Assembly: GCA_043821725.1 (NCBI GenBank)
Contig: JBDRCM010000002.1
Coordinates: 1 to 59,502 of the forward strand
Length of the DNA: 59,502 nt
DNA from: a bacterium
GTDB taxonomy: Bacteria > Patescibacteriota > Patescibacteriia > Magasanikbacterales > GWA2-37-8
Direction: 5' to 3'
Part shown: piece by piece, positions 30,783-59,502 of the stretch
Layout of the letters: every line of letters starts with the position of its first letter
Position numbering within the stretch: position 1 is the first letter of the stretch
The notes under the pieces: generated by a model
What the model was told of the DNA's origin: nothing
Seen by the model: the letters and a program-made list of their open reading frames with translations, nothing else
Databases searched by the model: none
Translations under genes and position numbers: made by a program

Positions 30783-30853
30783 GGGCGAGTGGTGTAGTGG
30801 TAACACAGGGGTCTCCAAAACCTCTGACGAGGGTTCGATTCCTTCCTCGCCTG
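30783..30853 (+). tRNA. tRNA-Trp(CCA)
   Basis: GGGCGAG/CTCGCCT acceptor stem, loop CT-CCA-AA, GGTTCGATTCC T arm. Confidence 0.95.
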
Positions 30854-30973
30854 CTCATAAATTCGTGGCTTAACTTAGCCACGTTTTTTGTTTGACCGAG
30901 GGAGGAATCGAACCAAATATTCTATTTTCCGCTTAAATATGGTAAGATTAAGACTATAATTTATATCTATAAT

Positions 30974-32245
30974 ATGAGTAAACCAACAGAATTAAAACAT
31001 GGGTTACATGATGAGACTAAGGAGCAAGCTCTGCGCAGGCTTTCTGAAACAGTACGAAGTTCTGCGTTAGAAGGTAGAAAAGAAGTTTTTGATCGCTTAA
31101 CATCAAGAAATGCCCATAAAATTGCTGAAATGTCTAAAGAAAAACCAGTATTTTATGAGAATGACCCCACGGCCGAACAGAGTTCTTCTATCGATGATGA
31201 GATAGTTGATTCGTTGCCAGATGATTTTTTTACAAATCCGACTGAATGGATTGAGAGTAGGCCTAATATAAATCGTGGTTATGATATATTTAGTAGATTT
31301 GAAAATTTGCCTTATGGAGCAAGTATTGAAGAGTTATGGGAGCATCCATATGATGTGTCTAAAGTTAAAATAATAACTTTATCAAACGGCAAAATTATTA
31401 CTTCCAAGAGAATAAACGGACAAACTAGTGAGGTTGATAGAGCTAAAAAGGCCTTTCAGGCTGGAATACCAACCCCAAAGGTGTTGGGTGAGATCCATGA
31501 TAAAGGCAATTATTACGTTTGGTATGAATATATTCCAGCAAGAAATGTTGATTCCTTTTTGTGTGATAAAATAACATCTGAATTTTTATTAAGTTCATGT
31601 CCTATATCCACAACTAATGATAAACAATTTAAAGAACAGATGCTAGAAACAAGTGTTTCTATTTTTCTTGATGACGAGTCTAGCCAACAAAAACTACATG
31701 ATCTTTGGCTTAAATTTAAAGATCATATCATTCGAATAAATAGTGGTTATCACTTTTTAGGTGATTTGAGCAAATTTGTGTTAAATTGGGATAATACAAA
31801 AATAGGTGATTTTAAAGATAAAATGTTGTCATTATTTGGTGATGAAGACGAAGTATCTGCCTTTTTTATTTCACTTGGATATAGTAGTATTGATGATTTT
31901 ATAGATGTTTTGTTGCGTAGTAAAGAAAGAGGAGAGCATCAAGAGTTCTCGCATGAAATTATGAATAAATTAGAAAGAGATCCAAATAGAGAAGAGAGAG
32001 TGGGCATAGCTCAATTTGTAAGAGAATGGGATAATTTAATTTAAGTAGAATATTTTGGTTTTAATTTAAATGAAGAGATTGAACAATTAGAAAAAATGTG
32101 CGAACAGAAAGGAATAAAACACAAAGATTATAACAATCGTAATATTTTAGTAAGATGGGATTCTAGAAATTACAGGCCGTTAAAACCTAAAGAGAATGAA
32201 CCGCCACTTTATTTAATAGATTGGGAAGAAAAAGTGAATGAATAA
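30974..32245 (+). pseudogene. Protein-kinase-like (APH/Kdo/Bud32-type) gene with one in-frame TAA at 32042
   Basis: GIPTPKVL..YYVWYEYI N-lobe; frame stays open past the TAA and encodes HKDYNNRN (HxDxxxxN) and LIDWE up to TAA 32245. Confidence 0.8.
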
Positions 32246-32253
32246 CAAAATAA

Positions 32254-32426
32254 ATAGTGAGTAGCACTAGGGGGTAAAATTAACCCAGCTTTTGAATATA
32301 GATAAATTTAGTTGAATTTTTAATAATAGTTCCAACATCCTTTGCTATAGCCTGCTAAGCGGGATGAGTAGACTAAATAAGTCTACTTTTCTTTTTATTT
32401 TAGCCAAGAATCAATGGTTCGATAGT
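32254..32426 (+). repeat. Cassette junction 1: arm B - GCCTGCT - arm Y
   Basis: ATAGTGAGTAGCACTAGGGGGTAAA...AGTTCCAACATCCTTTGCTAT matches 35544-35637; right side (hairpin, T-run, AATCAA-GGTTCGATAGT) matches 33045-33109. Confidence 0.85.
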
Positions 32427-32573
32427 GATTTTAAATTTAAAATTAATTTGACTAAAGTTAGCAAAATCGTATCTCGTCCTTGTTCCCCCTCGAGCTGGGA
32501 ATCGAACTAAACAATACAATTCATATGGCTTTTTTTAGTTAATTTTGTTATCATTAGTAAAAGGAGGAACAAC

Positions 32574-32834
32574 ATGGCTGAAAAATGCATGTGTAGTGCC
32601 ACAGATATTGAAGCTTGTGTATGCGAAATTGATGTCGGCAAGGTTATGAAAGCCCTTGCCCAAGGTAAGGGGGTGCAGAAAATCCAGGAGGCGTGCTTGT
32701 TGATTCAAGGGGCTGTGTATGATGAAGAAAGTGATCCAGACGACCTCTCGCATCAGCTCCAAGATTTGAAGACAATAATTTGCACCTTGGAACGTCAAAT
32801 TCACTTTCGGCAGAAAGAGGAAAAGGAGGAGTAG
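32574..32834 (+). CDS. Hypothetical Cys-containing 86-aa protein
   Basis: Strong SD AAAGGAGGA 5 nt before ATG; followed by a long hairpin. Confidence 0.7.
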   Translation: MAEKCMCSATDIEACVCEIDVGKVMKALAQGKGVQKIQEACLLIQGAVYDEESDPDDLSHQLQDLKTIICTLERQIHFRQKEEKEE

Positions 32835-32976
32835 GATGGATAATGATAATCCTATTCGTGCAGGACCAAAACGAGGGACATCAGCATTCGTCCCTTCATA
32901 AGATTATATGTTAATATAGTTTTATGAAGGAGATAAAAACGGATGCTGTTTTGTTTTTTTACAAAATATCGTTTTA

Positions 32977-33109
32977 TCCAATATTCAAAATTTTTTCACT
33001 AAACCTAGCAAAAAAAGTTCGGTAGCTGTCCTTGTATGCCTGCTAAGTAGGACAAATAGGCTCAGATAGCCTATTTTTTTTGTATTAGTCAAAATCAAGG
33101 TTCGATAGT
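32977..33109 (+). repeat. Cassette junction 2: arm A - GCCTGCT - arm Y
   Basis: CACTAAACCTAGCAAAAAAAGTTCGGTAGCTGTCCTTGTAT-GCCTGCT matches junctions 3 and 5. Confidence 0.85.
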
Positions 33110-33135
33110 AATTTATATGTATCCACACAAAATAT

Positions 33136-33164
33136 TTGACAAGTTGTTAAAAATAAGATACACT
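33136..33164 (+). promoter_or_regulatory. Sigma70 promoter of the TA operon
   Basis: TTGACA-N17-TACACT. Confidence 0.7.
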
Positions 33165-33196
33165 TAGGTTACACCTTAATTATTAATTTAATATAT

Positions 33197-33445
33197 ATGA
33201 CTACAAAACTAATTGGCGTCAAAGAATTTCGTCAAAATATAACAACTCTATATAAACAAGCAACCAGAAATAATTGGCGTTTTATTGTTTTAAATCGTAA
33301 CCAGCCTATATTTAAAATTGAGCCATTAAACAAAGAGGACGCTATTTTAGAGAAATTAGCCATTGATATCGCTGAAGCCAGAGAAGATGTAAAAAAAGGT
33401 AGATTATTTACTGCTGATCAAATAAGAAAAGATCTTGGTTTATAA
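33197..33445 (+). CDS. Phd/YefM-type antitoxin
   Basis: IGVKEFRQN...FIVLNRNQP N-terminus; acidic C-terminus; upstream of a RelE-type toxin. Confidence 0.8.
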   Translation: MTTKLIGVKEFRQNITTLYKQATRNNWRFIVLNRNQPIFKIEPLNKEDAILEKLAIDIAEAREDVKKGRLFTADQIRKDLGL

Positions 33446-33452
33446 TTGTATT

Positions 33453-33722
33453 ATGAAATACCAATTGTTTTATACCTTAAAATCAAAAAAAGATTTATCT
33501 GGCTTGGATAAAAAGATTTCTATCAGAATATTGAATAAATTAGATTTTTTTGTTAATTCAGGCGAACCACTTAAATATGCTAAAAAGTTGTCTGACCATA
33601 AAACAGGTACTTATAGATTTAGAGTAGGAAATTATAGGGCAATATTTGATATTGATAAAAAAGGTAAAATAACAATCCTTTTAATCCTAAGAGTTAAACA
33701 CAGAAAAGAAGTTTATTTATAA
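33453..33722 (+). CDS. RelE/ParE-family toxin
   Basis: SKKDLSGLD, YRFRVGNYRAIF, VKHRKEVY. Confidence 0.9.
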   Translation: MKYQLFYTLKSKKDLSGLDKKISIRILNKLDFFVNSGEPLKYAKKLSDHKTGTYRFRVGNYRAIFDIDKKGKITILLILRVKHRKEVYL

Positions 33723-33946
33723 CCGATCTCAGCTCGAATAACTTCTGCCTTGGTTTTCTGGTCCATATCCATGGCTAATTTCAACTTTAGCATTTTTACT
33801 ACCGAGCGTTAATTATTTTATTAAAGGCGATAAGTCTAACGGAGCTATATTTCTTGTATCTGCTATGATTTTTTTAGTTGCGTTTTTTTATAAAAACTAA
33901 AGGAGAATAACAATTTAAAATAGTTATTAATTTTGATAAAAAATAT

Positions 33947-34162
33947 ATGGAAGAAAAAAAGAAATACAAAGCTCATCGCATAGATGTTAAAAGCAGTAAT
34001 ACGCAGGATTATTTGGAACAATTTTTAAATAATTTTGGTAGAGAAGTACTCACAATTATTCCAAATATCAAACCAACTTTTCAGCTCATGGGGGCTACAG
34101 CCAAGGTTGATTATTTATTGATCGTAGAAAAATTAGAAACTAGTTGGTCATCACAAGCTTAG
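33947..34162 (+). CDS. Hypothetical 71-aa protein
   Basis: Co-oriented ORF followed by a hairpin/T-run. Confidence 0.6.
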   Translation: MEEKKKYKAHRIDVKSSNTQDYLEQFLNNFGREVLTIIPNIKPTFQLMGATAKVDYLLIVEKLETSWSSQA

Positions 34163-34285
34163 AGCAAATAGTTTATGATTATTTAAAAAAAGGGATGTTA
34201 TTTTTTAATATCTCTTTTTTTATTTTCCCTCGTAAAGCTAACAGTGTATTTGTAATGATTTTATTAAGGTTATCCACACCCTTGC

Positions 34286-34315
34286 TTGACACCTATGTTA
34301 GAAATATATAACATA
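34286..34315 (+). promoter_or_regulatory. Sigma70 promoter with an overlapping palindromic operator
   Basis: TTGACA-N17-TAACAT; TATGTTA-N8-TAACATA palindrome, a likely XRE autoregulation site. Confidence 0.65.
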
Positions 34316-34346
34316 AAGTTATAAATAATTAACTTAATCATAAAAT

Positions 34347-34760
34347 ATGAATAAAGATAAAATAAAGCTTACAATATTAATCATTATATTTTCAGTGGTA
34401 TTTTTGACTTTTGGATTATGGGTGCGACAGGAGTGGAAAAACAGTATGTCGTTTACTTTATCAAATTTAGCTGTTCCATTCTTATTAGTTTTTATAGTTT
34501 TATTGATAATTCCAGTAATTTTGCGTAACTATAAAAGTATAAAACAGAATGTTCCGGTAGAGGATGAGAGATCAAAAAAAGCCACGATGAAAGCAGCTTC
34601 ATTAAGTTATTTTATTTCGATATATGTATTTTTAGCTATAGGTTGGCTGGGGGATGATTATTTTGAGAGAGCTTCTCAAGCAACAGGGCTTGGTATTGGG
34701 ATAATGGCTATCGTTTTTATTTTATTATTACTTTATTTTCAAAGAAGGGGTAAATTATAA
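34347..34760 (+). CDS. DUF2178-like membrane protein
   Basis: 4 TM segments and the EDERS...KAA..SY motif; paired with an XRE HTH gene. Confidence 0.75.
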
Positions 34761-34761
34761 T

Positions 34762-34956
34762 ATGGGAAATAAAATAAAAGAATTACGTGCGCGTTACAAT
34801 TTTACACAGGAGGAATTAGCTAAAAAAGTTGGTGTACGTCGTGAAACAATTGTTTTTTTAGAAAAAGATAAGTACAACCCTTCTCTTAAATTAGCTTACG
34901 ATATTTCTAAGGTACTTAAAGCTACAATTGAAGAAATTTTTTTTAATAAAAATTAA
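34762..34956 (+). CDS. XRE-family HTH transcriptional regulator
   Basis: NKIKELR...[31 protein letters not shown]. Confidence 0.93.
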
Positions 34957-34962
34957 ATTAGT

Positions 34963-35093
34963 GTTTTAACACGTTTCCAAAATCCCCTCGCTAAAACTAG
35001 CAAAGAAAGTTCGGTAGCTGTCTCCGTATGCCTGCTGACAAATTCGTGGCTTAACTTAGGCACGTTTTTTGTTTAGGGGAGGAGGGAATCCAA
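34963..35093 (+). repeat. Cassette junction 3: arm A - GCCTGCT - arm X
   Basis: Right arm AAATTCGTGGCTTAACTTAGGCACGTTTTTGTTT is nearly identical to the sequence after tRNA-Trp (30859-30893). Confidence 0.85.
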
Positions 35094-35101
35094 TTAAATC
35101 A

Positions 35102-35254
35102 TTGACAATTAGACAAAATATATGTATGATACTGATAATATGAAGATCAAATTAATTCAATCAAGAAGCTATTATAACCGTTCTGACTTAGTGCGGTTGA
35201 TTTAGATTTATTTTTTAAAATAATAATACCGTCCTAAGTCAGGGCGGTTTTTTT
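35102..35254 (+). promoter_or_regulatory. Promoter + 21-aa leader peptide + transcription attenuator
   Basis: TTGACA-N17-TATGAT; ORF 35140-35205 MKIKLIQSRSYYNRSDLVRLI*; mutually complementary hairpins 35176-35198 and 35228-35248 followed by a T-run. Confidence 0.65.
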
Positions 35255-35361
35255 GTTGCTCATTAAAATAGTGATATAGCAATGTCTTTGCGAGAATATT
35301 TATTAAAGTATTCTTTCAATGGCCTTCCTATGGTGGGTAGGTCTGTAAAAGGAGAAAAAGG

Positions 35362-35451
35362 ATGAAAGTTAAATTGATGAAGGTGAATTGGGGGGTTTGT
35401 CTCCGTTGTGGTCGTTATCACATGAAGGGGACACAATACTGCTGGTATTAG
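35362..35451 (+). CDS. Putative 29-aa zinc-binding micro-protein
   Basis: SD AAGGAG; MKVKLMKVNWGVCLRCGRYHMKGTQYCWY* (CxxC-x3-H-x6-C); downstream AGGCCGAG/CTCGGCCT hairpin. Confidence 0.5.
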   Translation: MKVKLMKVNWGVCLRCGRYHMKGTQYCWY

Positions 35452-35543
35452 AGCCAGTAAAAGGTTAAGGCCGAGTACCTGATAATAAAATCTCGGCCTA
35501 GTACAAAAAGACATATAGAAAGGTGTTTTTTTGTTTCAAATAC

Positions 35544-35722
35544 ATAGTGAGTAACACTAGGGGGTAAATCACTTCAAGCTTGGAATAAAGATAAAACCCT
35601 TCTCATCCCTTAAAAAAGTTCCAACATCCTTTGCTATGGCCTGCTCCAGTTTTAACCAAAAATTTGGCTAACCTTAGCACCGCAAGACGGTGCTTTTTAG
35701 GTAGGGGGAGTAGGGAATCAAA
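35544..35722 (+). repeat. Cassette junction 4: arm B - GCCTGCT - arm Z
   Basis: Arm B as at 32254 with 95-96 bp to the core; right side has an AGCACCG/CGGTGCT terminator and a GGGAATCAAAC tail. Confidence 0.85.
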
Positions 35723-35823
35723 CTTTTGGATTTTTTTGTCTAGATATAGCTATTTTTTTTAGCAAATACTTGATTCATATACTCAATGTGTTAATATTAT
35801 TTTATAAATAAAATAATAAATCT

Positions 35824-36444
35824 ATGGGATTAGCAGTAGCCATAATATTATACTATACTTTCTGTGTTATTTATTTATCAGCCATTTTGTTTCCAATTAT
35901 ATTGCTGATATTTTTTAGGAAGCGTTTCAGTCTAAAAAATGTATTAAAGATATATTTCTTTGTTATTGTCCCCGTGCTTTTATTTTGGTTTATGATCAGC
36001 AAGCCATTATTTTGGCCTGATATAGATATTTTGAAATTAGAAAGAACAATAGATTGTCCGATGGAGTCCATAAATTTTGGTCCAGATCCATTAGTTCCTG
36101 GCACTGAAATAACTGGCTCGTATATAACAGGGCCGTCTCAAGTTTATAAAATATGGGAGAAACGATTTTGGAACAAGAAAGTTGATCTCGCCAAATGTAA
36201 AGGAGTAGATGCTAAAAAAGCATTAAAGCACCAGCGTGATGTACGGCTACAAACTAACATGGATAATCCAAAGTTGATTGGCTGGAGTGTATCTACTACA
36301 AAATTTGCTTTTGGAGAGCCTGAAAAAATAGAGGAAAAAGATGGTATGGAAAGATGGATATACTATCCTTGGGAAGAAAAAGGGCCTTGGTCGGTTTCAA
36401 TATATGTGAAAGATGGTAAAATTTATAAAATTGTTGGTGATTAA
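35824..36444 (+). CDS. Hypothetical membrane protein with a SmpA/BamE-like C-terminal motif
   Basis: Two N-terminal TMs; FGEPEKIEEKDGMERWIY resembles the G-x-P...W-x-Y fold motif. Confidence 0.65.
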   Translation: MGLAVAIILYYTFCVIYLSAILFPIILLIFFRKRFSLKNVLKIYFFVIVPVLLFWFMISKPLFWPDIDILKLERTIDCPMESINFGPDPLVPGTEITGSYITGPSQVYKIWEKRFWNKKVDLAKCKGVDAKKALKHQRDVRLQTNMDNPKLIGWSVSTTKFAFGEPEKIEEKDGMERWIYYPWEEKGPWSVSIYVKDGKIYKIVGD

Positions 36445-36521
36445 GTTTTTAACACGTTTCCAAAAATCCTTCACTATAAACCTAGCAAAAAAAGTTCGGT
36501 AGCCGTCCCTGTATGTCTATT
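36445..36521 (+). repeat. Cassette junction 5: arm A with degenerate core
   Basis: TTTTAACACGTTTCCAAAA...CTAGCAAAAAAAGTTCGGTAGCCGTCCCTGTAT followed by GTCTATT. Confidence 0.8.
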
Positions 36522-36654: not shown

Positions 36655-38178
36655 ATGCCAAATACTTGGTTTTTAATGCAAGAATTTAATAAAGCCACAT
36701 ACTTTAATTGGGCAATGCAAATGCGCAATGCATCTTTGGGTTGGAAAGATGAATTTGGCATTGCTGGCTCTTTAACTGTTCAACATGATAATGTAATTGA
36801 GCTACATTTTCATCAACAACAATGGAGAATGATCGGGGAAATGGTTTGGAATAAAGTAAAAGTAAACCCACAATGGCTTGATGATATTACAACTGAAACA
36901 TATAAAAGGATAGATAATTTTTTTGTTTTTTTAAATAAATTAAAAGCTCAGAATTTAATGGTTGCAAGTAATGGGCAATTGTCGGATTTACTTACCGAGT
37001 TTGAACAACATCGTTATGAAATTCATATATATGGAGTAGTGGGTACAATTTTGGAATTTGATCATGAATTATTAAGTAAATATTTGCAGAATTATTTACA
37101 AGCGCAGGTAGAAAAAATTGGTAGCATCTTGTTAGTCAATCAAGCTTTTAGTACATTGACTACGTTTCATAAAGATACTTTTGTCCGGAAAGAAGAGAAG
37201 AGTATGCTTAAATTGGTTGAATATGCACAATCTACGGTAGGTCTTTTAAGGTTTATTTTAGAACAGCCAGACAAAAATATATTAGAAATTTTATCAAAAG
37301 AATATTCAGATTTTAATAAAAAATTTGAAGAACATTATGAAAATTTTTGTTGGATTCAATATCAACATGTTGGTCCAGCATGGAGTAGAGAATATTTTGT
37401 TGATATTTTACGATCGTTGCTTAAGCAAGGTATTAACCCGATAAACCAGATCAAAGATTTCACCGTTACGATAGATAATACTCAAAAAGAACAGGAAAAA
37501 ATAAGCAAAGAGTTAGAGTTTGATGACTATCACAAAAATATGTTTCGTTTGGCAAGGGAATTGTCTTTTGTAAAATCTCTGCGTAATGATTCTTTTTTTT
37601 GTGGTTTTTATATCATTGAACCATTGTTAAAAGAGATAGGCAAGAGGTTGGGATTGTCGTTATCACAAGTCAGAGTATGTTTACCCGGTGAAATACAGCA
37701 GGCATTGTCAACGGGCAATTATTCTGTGGATGATTTAAATAATAGGTTGGCATATTCTGTTTATGCAATCTTAGAGGGTAAAATATCAATATTAACGGGT
37801 CAAGCCGCAAAAGATTTGGTTAATAAAATTAAAGCATTAGAACCAAAAATTGAGCAGAGTAACGAGATCAAAGGGACCGTGGCTGTGCCAGGAAAAGTTA
37901 AAGGAATGGTTAAGGTGGTAAATGAAGTCGAGGATATACATAAAATGAAAGATGGCGATGTCTTAGTTTCCAATGCCACTTATCCCAGTTTAGTGTCTGC
38001 CATGAGAAAAGCCATAGCTATCATAACAGATTTAGGTGGTATAACTTCGCATGCGGCTATTATTTCGCGAGAGCTAAAAATTCCTTGCGTAGTTGGTACA
38101 AAAATAGCTACTAAAGTTTTGAAAGATGGCGATATTGTTGAGGTAGATGCTGATAATGGAATAGTGAGAAAAATATAG
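36655..38178 (+). CDS. PEP-utilising phospho-His swivel-domain protein (helical N-terminus)
   Basis: C-terminal IKGTVAVPGKVKG...TDLGGITSHAAIISRELKIPCVVG...VDADNG. Confidence 0.88.
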   Translation: MPNTWFLMQEFNKATYFNWAMQMRNASLGWKDEFGIAGSLTVQHDNVIELHFHQQQWRMIGEMVWNKVKVNPQWLDDITTETYKRIDNFFVFLNKLKAQNLMVASNGQLSDLLTEFEQHRYEIHIYGVVGTILEFDHELLSKYLQNYLQAQVEKIGSILLVNQAFSTLTTFHKDTFVRKEEKSMLKLVEYAQSTVGLLRFILEQPDKNILEILSKEYSDFNKKFEEHYENFCWIQYQHVGPAWSREYFVDILRSLLKQGINPINQIKDFTVTIDNTQKEQEKISKELEFDDYHKNMFRLARELSFVKSLRNDSFFCGFYIIEPLLKEIGKRLGLSLSQVRVCLPGEIQQALSTGNYSVDDLNNRLAYSVYAILEGKISILTGQAAKDLVNKIKALEPKIEQSNEIKGTVAVPGKVKGMVKVVNEVEDIHKMKDGDVLVSNATYPSLVSAMRKAIAIITDLGGITSHAAIISRELKIPCVVGTKIATKVLKDGDIVEVDADNGIVRKI

Positions 38179-38212
38179 TGAGCAAAGGCATTTTTTTGTT
38201 AGTATATTTAAT

Positions 38213-39661
38213 ATGAATGAGATTATTAAACAATATGGAATCGACAATAGTGACTGGATCCACAAGGGTTTCCATGGTGTTTCTCATACTTTTTTTCCCG
38301 TTGAAGAAGAAGCGATCATATCAAAAAAAACATTGGGATATTCAGTAAATACAGCATTGTTTTTTTCGGAAGGCCATTACATACATCATTTTTGGAACAA
38401 AAACGATTTAACCAGAATAAGAAATATTTTTTTTCAAAGGCTTGACTCTGATCCCAAATATCTTGAAAAATTAAAAAATGATTGGAATAAAGATTTAGCT
38501 ATATTTGATGCAATTATCCTTAAAACAGATCGCACAAACTTAGCCAAATTGACGGATAAGCAATTAGTGTTTTTATATGATGAATTTTACAGAGCCTATG
38601 TGAAAGAATACAGCTATTTTATGGCTTTGGGCGATGCTATTTCAATGCAGGTTGAGGACTATTTAATTCCGGAATTTAAAAAAGTTTTGCAAGGAGATTT
38701 TAATAATTTGTTTTCTTTACTCGTTAGCACACACCACGTTTCCTTTATAGAAAAAGAACAAAGGGCGCGTGATGCTATTATAGAAATATATCGAAGGACT
38801 GGGACCATACCGCATGATATGTTGGAAAAACATGCAAAAGAATTTTTTTATATAAAAAATAATTATGCTAAAGCGATTTATTTTTCCGCTTCTGATTTTA
38901 AAAAAGAAATTATTGCAGAAAGCAGAATGGAGGTCGACCAGTACATCAATGTTAATAGAAGTAACGATACAATAAATCGAGAAAAGACATTTGAAGAGTA
39001 TAATTTTACCGATCACCATAAAATTCTTTTGTACGTTATGGACGAATTTTTTGGAATTCAGGATACTCGGAAAAAATACGTATTAATTTCAAATTATTAC
39101 CAATTTAATTTTTTGGCAGAGCTTTCAAGAAGAACTAATATTGATTACGAGTTGTTGCGATTTTCTGTACAGCCGGAATTTAAGGATATCTTGGAAAAAG
39201 GAATCGATATACGTGTGCTGTCTGATCGAAAAGATTTTGGGCTATGTTTATGCAATGAAGAAGGATACAAAATAGTCGTAGGAAATAATGCTCGCCAAGT
39301 CTATCGTTTTATAATTCAATCAACTCAAGCAAATATGAATAATCATGAAGTGAAGGGGATAGTTGCTTCAAAGGGTAAAGCTACTGGACGTGTAAAAATT
39401 GTTCTTAAAATTCACGATATGATAAATTTTGAAAAAGGCGATGTATTGGTATCTAGCATGACCAGGCCTGAAATGATTCCTGCTATGAAACAGGCTGTAG
39501 CTATAGTAACGGATGAGGGTGGTATGACCAGCCATGCGGCAATAGTTGCCAGAGAATTGAAAGTTCCGTGCATTATTGGCACAAAATATGCAACTACTAT
39601 TTTTAAAAATGGCGATATGGTTGATGTGGACGCGGAGGACGGAAAAATTAGGAAAATATAA
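38213..39661 (+). CDS. PEP-utilising phospho-His swivel-domain protein (paralogue)
   Basis: C-terminal MTRPE...TDEGGMTSHAAIVARELKVPCIIG...VDAEDG. Confidence 0.88.
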   Translation: MNEIIKQYGIDNSDWIHKGFHGVSHTFFPVEEEAIISKKTLGYSVNTALFFSEGHYIHHFWNKNDLTRIRNIFFQRLDSDPKYLEKLKNDWNKDLAIFDAIILKTDRTNLAKLTDKQLVFLYDEFYRAYVKEYSYFMALGDAISMQVEDYLIPEFKKVLQGDFNNLFSLLVSTHHVSFIEKEQRARDAIIEIYRRTGTIPHDMLEKHAKEFFYIKNNYAKAIYFSASDFKKEIIAESRMEVDQYINVNRSNDTINREKTFEEYNFTDHHKILLYVMDEFFGIQDTRKKYVLISNYYQFNFLAELSRRTNIDYELLRFSVQPEFKDILEKGIDIRVLSDRKDFGLCLCNEEGYKIVVGNNARQVYRFIIQSTQANMNNHEVKGIVASKGKATGRVKIVLKIHDMINFEKGDVLVSSMTRPEMIPAMKQAVAIVTDEGGMTSHAAIVARELKVPCIIGTKYATTIFKNGDMVDVDAEDGKIRKI

Positions 39662-58661: not shown

Positions 58662-58733
58662 TCCGGGGTAGCGCAGCGGTAGCGCAGTTGACTGTTAATC
58701 AATTGGTCGCGGGTTCGAATCCCGCCCCCGGAG
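58662..58733 (+). tRNA. tRNA-Asn(GTT)
   Basis: TCCGGGG/CCCCGGA acceptor stem, loop CT-GTT-AA. Confidence 0.96.
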
Positions 58734-59502
58734 CAAAACAGGATGAGCAGGTTCTAAAGAGCCTGTTTTCTTGTATATAGAGCCATTTTTTAGGAGTTCT
58801 GAAGTTGTGTTTAGCTTGGGTATCCATTCGGCGAGAAAAGCAAACGAATCGGTGTACTCAACATTTAGTTTTTGATCGGTATTGATAGTCATTTCTCTGA
58901 AAATTCGTTGTATAAGCGTTCTTCTGTCGTCGGGTGTAGCTTTTCTGCTGTTATACTTTTCTCGGGCTGTAAACGCCAAATTATGAATCTCAACGCCCAC
59001 CTCGTAATAGTTCTTGACCCGTGAATTTAGCTTTTCCAATTTACTCATTATGTCCTTTTGTTGCTTACCAAATAGCTTGAATTTTTTATTGTAATAATCC
59101 TCGGATATCTTGCCGTCCAGTTTATCGTCATACATCTTGTCAAAGCGGTTTTCTATCTTTTGTAGTTCGGCGGTTAATGATTCTCGGGTAGTCGCTGAAT
59201 AATCCTTTTTGCCTTTGTTGCTTTCTTTGAGGGCTTTATTTATCCAGTCCAAAACTTCCTTATTATTCGGACGGATTTTGTCCATCATTTCATTTAGTAT
59301 CTCGTCAATATTTTCCTCTTTAATATATCCCTTTCGTGTACAGGGTTTAAATCCACGACAAGAGCCGTAATTGTGGCCTTTTTGTGTTTGCCAACTAATA
59401 AGACAACCGCACTCCTCACAACGAATTAAACCTTTGAAAGTATGAAATTTCTTTTTGTATTGTCCGGCTTTGAGTGGTCTTCTTAATTTTTCTTGTACCT
59501 CG
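58695..59502 (-). CDS. Large serine recombinase, C-terminal part (5' end outside the window)
   Basis: Frame open upstream of 59288: FKGLIRCEECG...YGSC..KPC zinc ribbon, then coiled coil; C-terminus LRGRDSNPRPID is read antisense through tRNA-Asn. Confidence 0.88.
   Translation of the reverse strand, partial: EVQEKLRRPLKAGQYKKKFHTFKGLIRCEECGCLISWQTQKGHNYGSCRGFKPCTRKGYIKEENIDEILNEMMDKIRPNNKEVLDWINKALKESNKGKKDYSATTRESLTAELQKIENRFDKMYDDKLDGKISEDYYNKKFKLFGKQQKDIMSKLEKLNSRVKNYYEVGVEIHNLAFTAREKYNSRKATPDDRRTLIQRIFREMTINTDQKLNVEYTDSFAFLAEWIPKLNTTSELLKNGSIYKKTGSLEPAHPVLLRGRDSNPRPID

Follow-up and report, generated by a model that had tools for sequence, protein, structure and literature searches.

The 3′ end of a tRNA-Trp gene in a small-genome bacterium of the order Magasanikbacterales (assembly GCA_043821725.1, here G000; 1.0 Mb, 46 contigs, ~37% G+C) is followed by an array of short gene cassettes, located at positions 30849-36521 of the window (i.e. 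the whole 59,502-nt stretch of contig JBDRCM010000002.1 that was analysed). We regard it as probable that this array consists of five miniature integrative elements that carry no large serine recombinase (LSR), are stacked at the tRNA-Trp 3′ end and were moved in trans. A preliminary description, made from the letters of the window, had proposed recombinase-free units in this place, and indeed no recombinase was found within 30849-36521 by domain and recombinase profile searches. Since the array holds no LSR, while the genome encodes three of them elsewhere (at the end of the window and on contigs C30 and C31; domain set Resolvase, Recombinase and Zn_ribbon_recom), it can only be a non-autonomous derivative. 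Throughout the text G-numbers denote genomes, C-numbers contigs of G000, and L-numbers sampled loci (L139-L142 being derived from metagenome contigs).

Core junctions and the exchange of arms

The tRNA-Trp (CCA) gene (30783-30854, + strand, detected with ARAGORN) is preceded by genes for tRNA-Tyr, two tRNA-Thr and ribosomal protein L33. The end of its acceptor stem and its discriminator base lie within the heptamer GCCTGCT, of which there are + strand copies at 30849, 32350, 33038, 35030 and 35639, and a sixth site (36515) reads GTCTATT and lies behind a clear copy of an arm described below (arm A). Motif and repeat searches thus bear out the four exact repeats and the degenerate one that had been noticed beforehand. 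Over both strands of the full window there are nine matches to the heptamer (4.97 expected), and for four additional copies on one strand within at most 4.8 kb a Poisson estimate gives P ~6e-5. Across 19 aligned junctions (6 from G000, 9 from L139, 3 from L140 and 1 from L141) the invariant core is six nucleotides long (GCCTGC), so that the heptamer does recur at the sites named for it, but its last base does not belong to the invariant part.

Each junction joins a left arm (or the tRNA) to a right arm at the core. Following the + strand, and as placed by motif search and junction alignment, these are J0 (30849-30854, tRNA/X), J1 (32350-32355, B/Y), J2 (33038-33043, A/Y), J3 (35030-35035, A/X) and J4 (35639-35644, B/Z), all with the core GCCTGC; J5 (36515-36520, + strand, placed by repeat families and junction alignment) has the degenerate core GTCTAT, in which the central CT is retained. 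J2 is spanned at 100% identity by a 101-nt contig from a public run. The array is also poorer in G+C than the DNA upstream of it (31.9% vs 38.3%).

Using ungapped identity in the two 40-nt flanks of the core as a measure of partner switching, we found that J3 (A/X) resembles J0 (tRNA/X) only on its right side (0.23 left, 0.90 right) and J2 (A/Y) only on its left side (0.85 left, 0.35 right). The arms exchange partners exactly at the core, and the left/right identity matrix agrees with the breakpoints that had been proposed there. Read from core to core, both X..B and Y..A occur twice in this array (p = 0.1 by enumeration), as had been pointed out, but such pairing is not strict in L139 (see below), and the accompanying idea that attP is strictly B/X or A/Y is reduced by the L139 pairings to a tendency.

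Left and right arms

The left arms fall into the two classes that were anticipated, and in all five of them AGTTC ends 17 nt before the core. Class A (three copies, 82 nt, 65-77% identity, repeat family D1) is found at 32963-33037 (A1; supported by repeats, an order-wide consensus and alignment), 34955-35029 (A2; family D1 and alignment) and 36440-36514 (A3; family D1), while class B (two copies, each made of two blocks, 94% identity, repeat families D9 and D10) is found at 32248-32349 (B1; both families and alignment) and 35536-35638 (B2; repeat families), all on the + strand. B1, in which GTTC starts 21 nt before the core, is proposed to be a P-type half-site.

Two other readings of the left arms were tried and rejected. 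An origin as genuine copies of the tRNA-Trp 3′ end that later decayed is at odds with arm A being near-identical in two organisms and 5 nt longer than the tRNA. A crossover at GTTCG(R)A had been considered because direct copies of a TTAGCC..GGTTCGRWAG repeat bracket the Y..A units as well as, on contig C19, a 1.2-kb unit at tRNA-Ser. It was rejected for the array because the 17 nt from GTTC to the core invariably stay linked to the upstream portion of the left arm, and in no case to the right arm, and because the X and Z cassettes are devoid of the repeat.

The right arms comprise class X (two copies, 70 nt, 83% identity), class Y (two copies, 44 nt, 70% identity, plus a second common block) and class Z (a single copy), all on the + strand. 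In the first X arm (X0, 30856-30918, families D2 and I13) a 4-mer is followed by a terminator hairpin (30864-30883) and by an inverted copy (30897-30914) of the T-arm/acceptor part of tRNA-Trp. The first Y arm (Y1, 32357-32425) reads TAAGCGGGATGAG.., a terminator (32366-32388) and TTAGCC..GGTTCGATAG, with a further inverted T-loop-like block past its end (32491-32511); the second (Y2, 33045-33108) has its terminator at 33054-33076 and GGTTCGATAG at 33099-33108. The hairpin of the second X arm (X1, 35037-35099) contains one mismatch, and a strong promoter-like site follows this arm (35102-35130). Arm Z (35646-35723) carries a terminator (35676-35694) and then an inverted GGGAATCAAAC block.

A terminator-like hairpin, which had been attributed to each right-arm class, was called in four of the five arms, but not in X1, whose hairpin has the mismatch. 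Likewise, the units were said to have their own promoters: the promoter scan returned three strong matches, but the total number of promoter-like sites (30) is not above that in shuffled sequences (27.5).

Some further regularities were seen to the right of the core. Inverted T-loop/acceptor-like blocks (GGGAGGAATCGAACC) lie 45-150 nt past it in X and Z and after Y1 (30897-30914, 32491-32511, 35078-35098 and ~35705-35723), the one in X0 being 94% complementary to the 3′ half of tRNA-Trp (30832-30849 with 30897-30914). The 4 nt that directly follow the core are drawn, in the window, L139 and L140, from a small recurring set (TCAT with X and Z, ACCG with X and Z, TAAG with Y), and these 4-mers recur with different arms on either side of the core. 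X and Z have a common distal block, and they may represent one arm type with exchanged terminators.

The same arms with other cargo in other organisms

A scan of metagenome contigs with arm A and the Trp core recovered four loci (L139-L142). L139, which is part of a 182-kb contig of 32% G+C, has the same tRNA-Tyr/Thr/Thr/Trp cluster and, within the 12.4 kb examined, at least nine junctions (tRNA/X, A/X, B/Z, B/X, B/X, B/W, A/Y, C/V and C/Z), which delimit the units X..A, X..B, Z..B, X..B, X..B, W..A, Y..C and V..C. Three more junctions are present in L140 and one each in L141 and L142, and in all four loci the open reading frames (ORFs) between junctions are co-oriented with the tRNA.

The cargo behind these arms is different. 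When 13 proteins of the window were compared with L139-L142 by tblastn, ribosomal protein L33 was the sole match, and the recombinases of G000 had no match in the same loci. L139 encodes a surface protein (with peptidoglycan-binding and immunoglobulin-like domains), a pyridoxal phosphate-dependent enzyme, a zeta toxin, two NYN-domain proteins, a Fic protein with a helix-turn-helix (HTH) domain and a Bro-N protein. Between G000 and L139 the arms are 82-97% identical, and the last 40 nt of tRNA-Trp 78%. An exact 24-nt copy of the X arm was also recovered from G135, a member of a different family, on a contig of 46% G+C with the order rpmG, tRNA-Trp/X, a 0.45-kb cassette, B-like/X and contig end. 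Hence the search beyond this genome that the preliminary description had called for located the same arms at tRNA-Trp, with other cargo and order, in two other organisms.

Nineteen relatives searched with the last 10 nt of tRNA-Trp showed no array. One of them (G021) has a short duplicate 46 nt downstream, and in G002 (same genus) the tRNA-Trp is different and a helicase gene directly follows it.

Link to large serine recombinases and geometry of the sites

Within the order, a 16-mer of arm A (with at most one mismatch) was found in 22 of 240 genomes, against 11 hits in 10 genomes for a reversed-pattern control. By our own reading, ~21 of the 25 matches outside G000 stand in the consensus context TTAGCYAAAAA-AGTTCGGAAGCTGTCC-nn-GTATGCGAGC, followed by a terminator. 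Arm A1 agrees with this order-wide LSR arm consensus except for two central bases (GTATGC-CT-GC in arm A, GTATGC-GA-GC in the consensus). The consensus core GCGAGC had no match as a tRNA 3′ end in five genomes, and an 18-mer of the arm element matched 44 stretches in a species-genome collection (by our own arithmetic ~17 chance matches would be expected in one of that size), 20 of the 44 with candidate-phyla-radiation titles.

The consensus arm closes LSR-encoding islands on C31 of G000 and in G067, the latter reading tRNA-Asn, terminator, a 529-aa LSR on the opposite strand, cargo, and the arm 9.4 kb further. A Recombinase-domain match was obtained in 142 of the 240 genomes of the order, and an LSR is present in 18 of 21 other arm-motif genomes vs 141 of 239 overall, a weak comparison, as relatedness makes the genomes non-independent. 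Among 20 LSR loci sampled, 12 have an LSR frame that extends into an oppositely oriented tRNA gene (Asn 4, Glu 3, Gln 3, Ser 1, Asp 1).

In the Asn and Gln islands the arm on the side of the tRNA is built of AAAACGGGATGAGCAG, a hairpin, TTTTC.., AGAGCC, a T-run and GGTTCGGAA, and ends in the last codons of the LSR; arm Y is built of TAAGCGGGATGAGTAG, a hairpin, TTTTC.., TTAGCC.. and GGTTCGATAG, and stops where the LSR frame would begin. Since arm Y corresponds to the tRNA-side arm without LSR codons, and arm A to the far arm, the Y..A cassettes resemble LSR elements from which the gene has been lost while both arms were retained.

The distance between motif and core differs in a constant way between arm and tRNA: in 17 of 17 non-tRNA junctions (belonging to four left-arm classes) the first base of GTTC is 21 nt ahead of the core, and in both tRNA-Trp genes (2/2) it is 16 nt ahead. 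We assessed this spacing in ten LSR islands at Asn, Gln, Ser and Asp tRNAs, in which the 6-mer found 16 nt after the T-loop GTTC was taken as core and GTTC-N(sp)-core was counted downstream of the tRNA (one core mismatch allowed). There were 12 hits at sp = 17, against 0-3 at each of 13 other spacers (14 in all), and the arms counted were otherwise unlike each other.

In the consulted part of the crystal-structure report on LI integrase (PMC3783163), the motif bound by the zinc-ribbon domain (ZD) is located at positions 16-24 in attP half-sites and 5 bp closer to the centre, at positions 11-19, in those of attB. If our sites are centred on the CT of GCC/TGC, GTTCGGTAG in the arm occupies positions 24-16 and GTTCGATTC in the tRNA positions 19-11, and the A/Y junction has its dyad at this very CT (TGTCCT..TATGC, CT, GCTAA..AGGACA). 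The 5-bp offset of GTTC thus fits the published attP/attB rule, GTTC itself being the candidate motif for contact by the protein, and from the make-up of the sites the acting recombinase family can be inferred to be that of the LSRs.

Proposed mode of insertion and competing explanations

We reason that conservative site-specific recombination would have placed each cassette at the tRNA-Trp 3′ end. The tRNA would act as the left half-site of attB, its T-loop GTTCGATTC serving as ZD motif at positions 11-19, and the end of the cassette would be a pseudo-tRNA P arm (A or B, and C in L139) with the GTTC motif 5 bp further out, at positions 16-24. Exchange would take place at the central CT of GC-CT-GC, and the terminator-bearing X, Y or Z arm at the start of the cassette would be its P-prime arm, which may stop transcription arriving from upstream. 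Every new insertion at the tRNA would displace the older cassettes outward, so that internal junctions come to read P/P-prime, and the distal junction at 36515 would be the oldest one, in which a P arm was joined to the original tRNA-distal flank and has since decayed. The LSR would be supplied in trans, either by one of the three encoded in G000 or by a transient element.

Several observations weigh against this reading. No LSR was found at tRNA-Trp in any of the three organisms (with 12.4 kb of L139 and 0.6 kb past the G135 tRNA examined), no LSR-bearing counterpart of arms B, X and Z was found, and four arm-bearing genomes that are 87-99% complete (G135, G110, G171 and G062) gave no serine-recombinase match (0/4) and have one or two tyrosine recombinases each. 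Textbook LSRs recombine only attP with attB, and stacking at an occupied (attL-like) tRNA would therefore need relaxed selectivity. The inner inverted repeat of the A/Y junctions is, by our own reading of the alignment, missing from the X and Z arms. The identity between partners is limited to GCCTGC, and the crossover can be placed only somewhere within these 6 nt. Finally, neither circle junctions nor empty sites were seen in one public run that holds 6% of the sampled words. Some contigs of that run are 100% identical to the window, and its single back-joint (33043 to 30859) has GGGC where the array has TCAT, which makes it the A/X junction of another organism, a relative. The circle junctions suggested earlier as a check were thus not recovered from this array in that run.

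The competing explanation that fares best, and which we nonetheless judge unlikely, is that the array is immobile, made up of fossil insertions or produced by homologous recombination and duplication among spacers, with its arms kept as terminators and promoters. It would be in keeping with the absence of a recombinase from the array, with the lack of circles and empty sites in the public run (6% of sampled words), with right arms that hold terminators and in several cases a promoter-like site after them, and with the marks of decay (the damaged X1 hairpin, the decayed core of J5, and a cargo gene that appears split into a 356-aa ORF and a 49-aa ORF). The left arms, however, have no obvious role in expression, yet maintain a fixed GTTC distance in 17 of 17 junctions and four classes. 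The arms are also 82-97% alike between organisms in which the 3′ half of the tRNA is 78% alike and the cargo wholly different, and the 24-nt X arm is exactly preserved in another family on a contig of 46% G+C. The breakpoints, moreover, fall within 6 nt, whereas homologous recombination would scatter them.

We find it quite improbable that the cassettes are modules exploiting Xer, such as the integrative mobile elements exploiting Xer (IMEX) or the pdif modules of Acinetobacter plasmids, in which case the 6-bp core would be a dif-like centre and the tyrosine recombinases of the host would insert and excise the units. An identical core of 6-7 bp is typical of the overlap region of tyrosine recombinases, the A/Y junctions can be read as 11-6-11 with partly inverted arms (TGTCCTTGTAT / GCCTGC / TAAGTAGGACA), G000 has two Xer-like recombinases, and all four arm-bearing genomes without a serine recombinase have a tyrosine recombinase. 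Against this stands the motif kept in 17 of 17 left arms at 18-21 nt from the core, which is beyond the 11-bp arm of Xer, together with the 5-bp offset between tRNA and arm and the peak of 12 hits that LSR islands show at spacer 17, neither of which an Xer site would accommodate. In addition, the first 11 nt of the right side are different in X, Y, Z, W and V, and arms A and Y are homologous to LSR-island arms.

A true relative of integrons, in which a tyrosine recombinase of the IntI type would use folded single-stranded attC-like sites and the tRNA end would be attI, is highly improbable, since the unit size of 0.6-2 kb, the co-orientation, the kind of cargo (toxin-antitoxin genes and small ORFs of no known family) and the 18-nt inverted repeat that the tRNA 3′ half and X0 form around a terminator (family I13) are set against the want of a tyrosine recombinase beside the array (the two Xer-like ones being on other contigs), cassettes with their own terminators and in some cases promoter-like sites, a core flanked on both sides by long class-specific arms instead of one attC, and an arm motif in common with LSR islands.

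Building on the preferred reading of LSR-less elements moved in trans, we tentatively advance a wider proposal, to which we would grant somewhat less than even chances. There may be a lineage of LSRs, widespread among these small-genome bacteria, that uses the universal T-loop of tRNAs as outer DNA motif, together with a pseudo-tRNA arm in which this motif lies 5 bp further out, and that is re-aimed between tRNAs through the central dinucleotide and ~10 inner bases. Its miniaturised recombinase-less derivatives would pile up as an ‘LSR integron’ with the tRNA end as attI, and an LSR frame that spans the crossover would have its last 10-30 residues swapped upon insertion, which could help to set the direction of the reaction.

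Relation to known systems and significance

The preliminary description did not recognise the array as a described system, a statement that has to be corrected, as LSR-driven tandem islands at a tRNA-like gene, some of them without integrase, are described in Dehalococcoides in the consulted part of PMC3146451. According to that part, the islands at ssrA are arranged in tandem, each bounded by a 20-bp repeat of the 3′ end of the gene, and their CcrB-family serine recombinase DsiB (~540 aa) is encoded on the reverse strand and adjoins the gene-proximal boundary; a conserved motif that does not align with the gene lies just upstream of the repeat, some islands have no integration module, and accretion has been proposed (PMC3146451).

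The present array is alike in having tandem units downstream of a tRNA or tRNA-like gene, each bounded by a 3′-end repeat with a conserved motif ahead of it, and recombinase-less members. It is unlike the ssrA islands in that the repeat is 6 nt long instead of 20 bp, the left arm otherwise being a pseudo-copy 5 nt longer than the tRNA; in its unit size (0.45-2.2 kb, theirs being many kb); in the tRNAs used (Trp, Gln, Asn and Ser, and in relatives also Glu and Asp); and in its host, a small-genome bacterium whose arm relatives bear candidate-phyla-radiation titles. An LSR on the reverse strand at the target-proximal boundary was encountered at tRNA-Asn in the window, at tRNA-Gln on C30, in G067 and in 12 of 20 sampled loci, though not in the Trp array.

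Composite islands of the staphylococcal cassette chromosome (SCC) and ccr-less pseudo-SCC elements likewise combine LSR-type insertion at the 3′ end of one gene, tandem arrays with short repeats, and recombinase-less members moved in trans. The likeness lies in the tandem array at the 3′ end of one conserved gene and in the recombinase-less members for which we propose movement in trans, whereas the SCC target is the protein-coding rlmH, the size is tens of kb, and there is neither a pseudo-tRNA arm nor a T-loop motif.

Integrons have the tyrosine recombinase IntI, a folded single-strand attC, promoterless cassettes, and an adjacent intI with the promoter Pc. With these the array has in common small co-oriented recombinase-less cassettes at one anchor, the newest (as proposed) nearest to it, and a cargo of toxin-antitoxin and unknown genes. 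It departs from them in units that start with a terminator arm and in several cases have promoter-like sites, and in the two long arms of every junction. IntI with attI and Pc was not found next to the array in G000 (in which PF00589 matches only the Xer-like proteins of C39 and C42). ‘Integron-like’, the earlier label, thus stands as an analogy only, there being no IntI, terminators of their own in the cassettes, and arms that resemble the double-strand att arms of LSR elements.

Tycheposons of Prochlorococcus, of which 910 of 937 have tyrosine recombinases and 27 of 937 a large serine recombinase according to the consulted part of the source (10.1101/2020.12.28.424599), also insert at tRNA genes, push older elements inward and leave degraded remnants and partial tRNA repeats. 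As described in that part, they differ in leaving true partial copies of the tRNA and in often carrying replication genes, and they are not presented there as arrays of recombinase-less cassettes below 2 kb.

IMEX elements and pdif modules depend on XerC/XerD and 28-bp dif-like sites. They too are small recombinase-less modules at short sites, often with toxin-antitoxin genes, whereas the conserved motif and the 5-bp offset seen here point to LSR sites. As in cis-mobilizable elements, the units are att-flanked and without recombination genes, the Y..A cassettes apparently keeping both arms of LSR islands. New here are the miniature units, the 6-nt core, the pseudo-tRNA arm with its 5-bp shift, the use of several tRNAs (apparently by way of the central bases) and the host group; no description of such arrays in candidate-phyla-radiation bacteria was found in the part of the literature covered (result listings).

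To our knowledge, gene exchange in these small-genome bacteria is poorly understood. One recombinase family, which is encoded by 142 of the 240 genomes of the order, seems to be responsible for large islands as well as integron-sized stacks at tRNA genes, and the geometry of the arms offers a readable rule of tRNA choice (T-loop outer motif, 5-bp shift, central dinucleotide). Since LSRs serve as genome-engineering tools (PMC3783163, in the part consulted), such a rule would be of practical interest. Considering their cargo (toxin-antitoxin, Fic, zeta-toxin, NYN and surface-protein genes), the arrays are likely sites of fast accessory-gene turnover.

Cargo of the cassettes

The five units of the array (0.6-2 kb) carry cargo that, as stated beforehand, is co-oriented, here on the + strand. 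Cassette 1 (30974-32245) encodes a 356-aa ORF (30974-32044) and a 49-aa ORF (32096-32245), both without a family match; the label ‘kinase’ that the former had received has no Pfam or NCBIfam support. An 86-aa ORF (32574-32834) in cassette 2 and a 206-aa ORF (35824-36444) in cassette 5 are equally without family match, and cassette 4 (35037-35638) contains very small ORFs only, with an internal terminator at 35228-35248.

Cassette 3 (33197-34956) is the richest in recognisable genes, with a Phd/YefM-like ORF, a ParE toxin, a 71-aa ORF, a DUF2178-like membrane protein and an HTH_3 regulator. Of the toxin-antitoxin pair that had been suggested, ParE passes the Pfam cut-off, but the Phd/YefM match is weak and stays below it; similarly, from the suggested combination of DUF2178 and an XRE regulator, HTH_3 passes the cut-off and the weak DUF2178 match does not.

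Downstream of the array, the stretch 36655-39661 (32% G+C) holds tandem paralogues of 507 and 482 aa with a C-terminal PEP-utilising mobile domain, either older island cargo or core genes.

Other tRNA-linked elements of the genome

Trp-type arms are confined to this locus in G000, and the arms are thus not scattered over the genome independently of tRNA-Trp, an outcome that would have spoken against the preliminary description. A 16-nt stretch of arm A nevertheless recurs on C29 (twice), C31 and C19, each time with the last few bases changed. The copies on C29 end in CCCGAGC and CCCGAAC, the former being the 3′ end of tRNA-Gln and leading into a right arm that is ~76% identical over 194 nt to the flank 3′ of tRNA-Gln(ttg), and the copy on C19 lies 1.2 kb downstream of tRNA-Ser(cga). 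These copies show that the same architecture is present at further tRNAs of this genome. Further small arrays of the same family were noted at 16436-17790 of C19 (the 1.2-kb unit behind tRNA-Ser(cga)), 13400-16312 of C29 (minus strand, with two Gln-type arms whose right arms resemble the tRNA-Gln(ttg) flank) and 17348-18812 of C30 (with LSR).

As regards recombinases, the two Xer-like tyrosine recombinases (276 and 322 aa, on C39 and C42) are the sole PF00589 matches of the genome. The LSR at the end of the window (58698-59501, minus strand; C-terminal part with the Zn_ribbon_recom domain) reads through an arm into tRNA-Asn (58662-58734, + strand, detected with ARAGORN), the anchor of another element of this family, and is truncated where the contig ends. 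The LSR of C30 directly follows tRNA-Gln(ctg) and is truncated in the same manner; no contig overlaps that would extend these LSR-terminated contigs were found in the assembly. The third, a 519-aa LSR, belongs to an 8.1-kb island on C31 that is bracketed by two copies of a 40-nt arm element.

In all three LSRs of G000, and in 7 of 7 tested islands (L175, L177, L178, L179, L181, L182 and L092+L144; 482-546 aa), the LSR frame continues without a stop across the tRNA-side arm as far as the proposed crossover. Its last 10-30 residues would thus be encoded by the antisense of the tRNA when integrated (..RDSNPRP..). In the circular form the tail would come from the far arm of the element itself (..IRTD.., ..FRTF..), and integration would thus swap the tail.

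The LSR island of C31 (32400-39400) has stretches of 62-72% G+C in a genome of 37%, including a fragment read as a group II intron reverse transcriptase, which points either to foreign material or to a chimeric contig. Near-identical downstream flanks were also observed in pairs of tRNA-Ser (C9 and C15) and tRNA-Pro (C25 and C35) genes, the tRNA-Ser pair lying 268 nt from the contig end, which suggests further repeated tRNA-flank modules that break the assembly.

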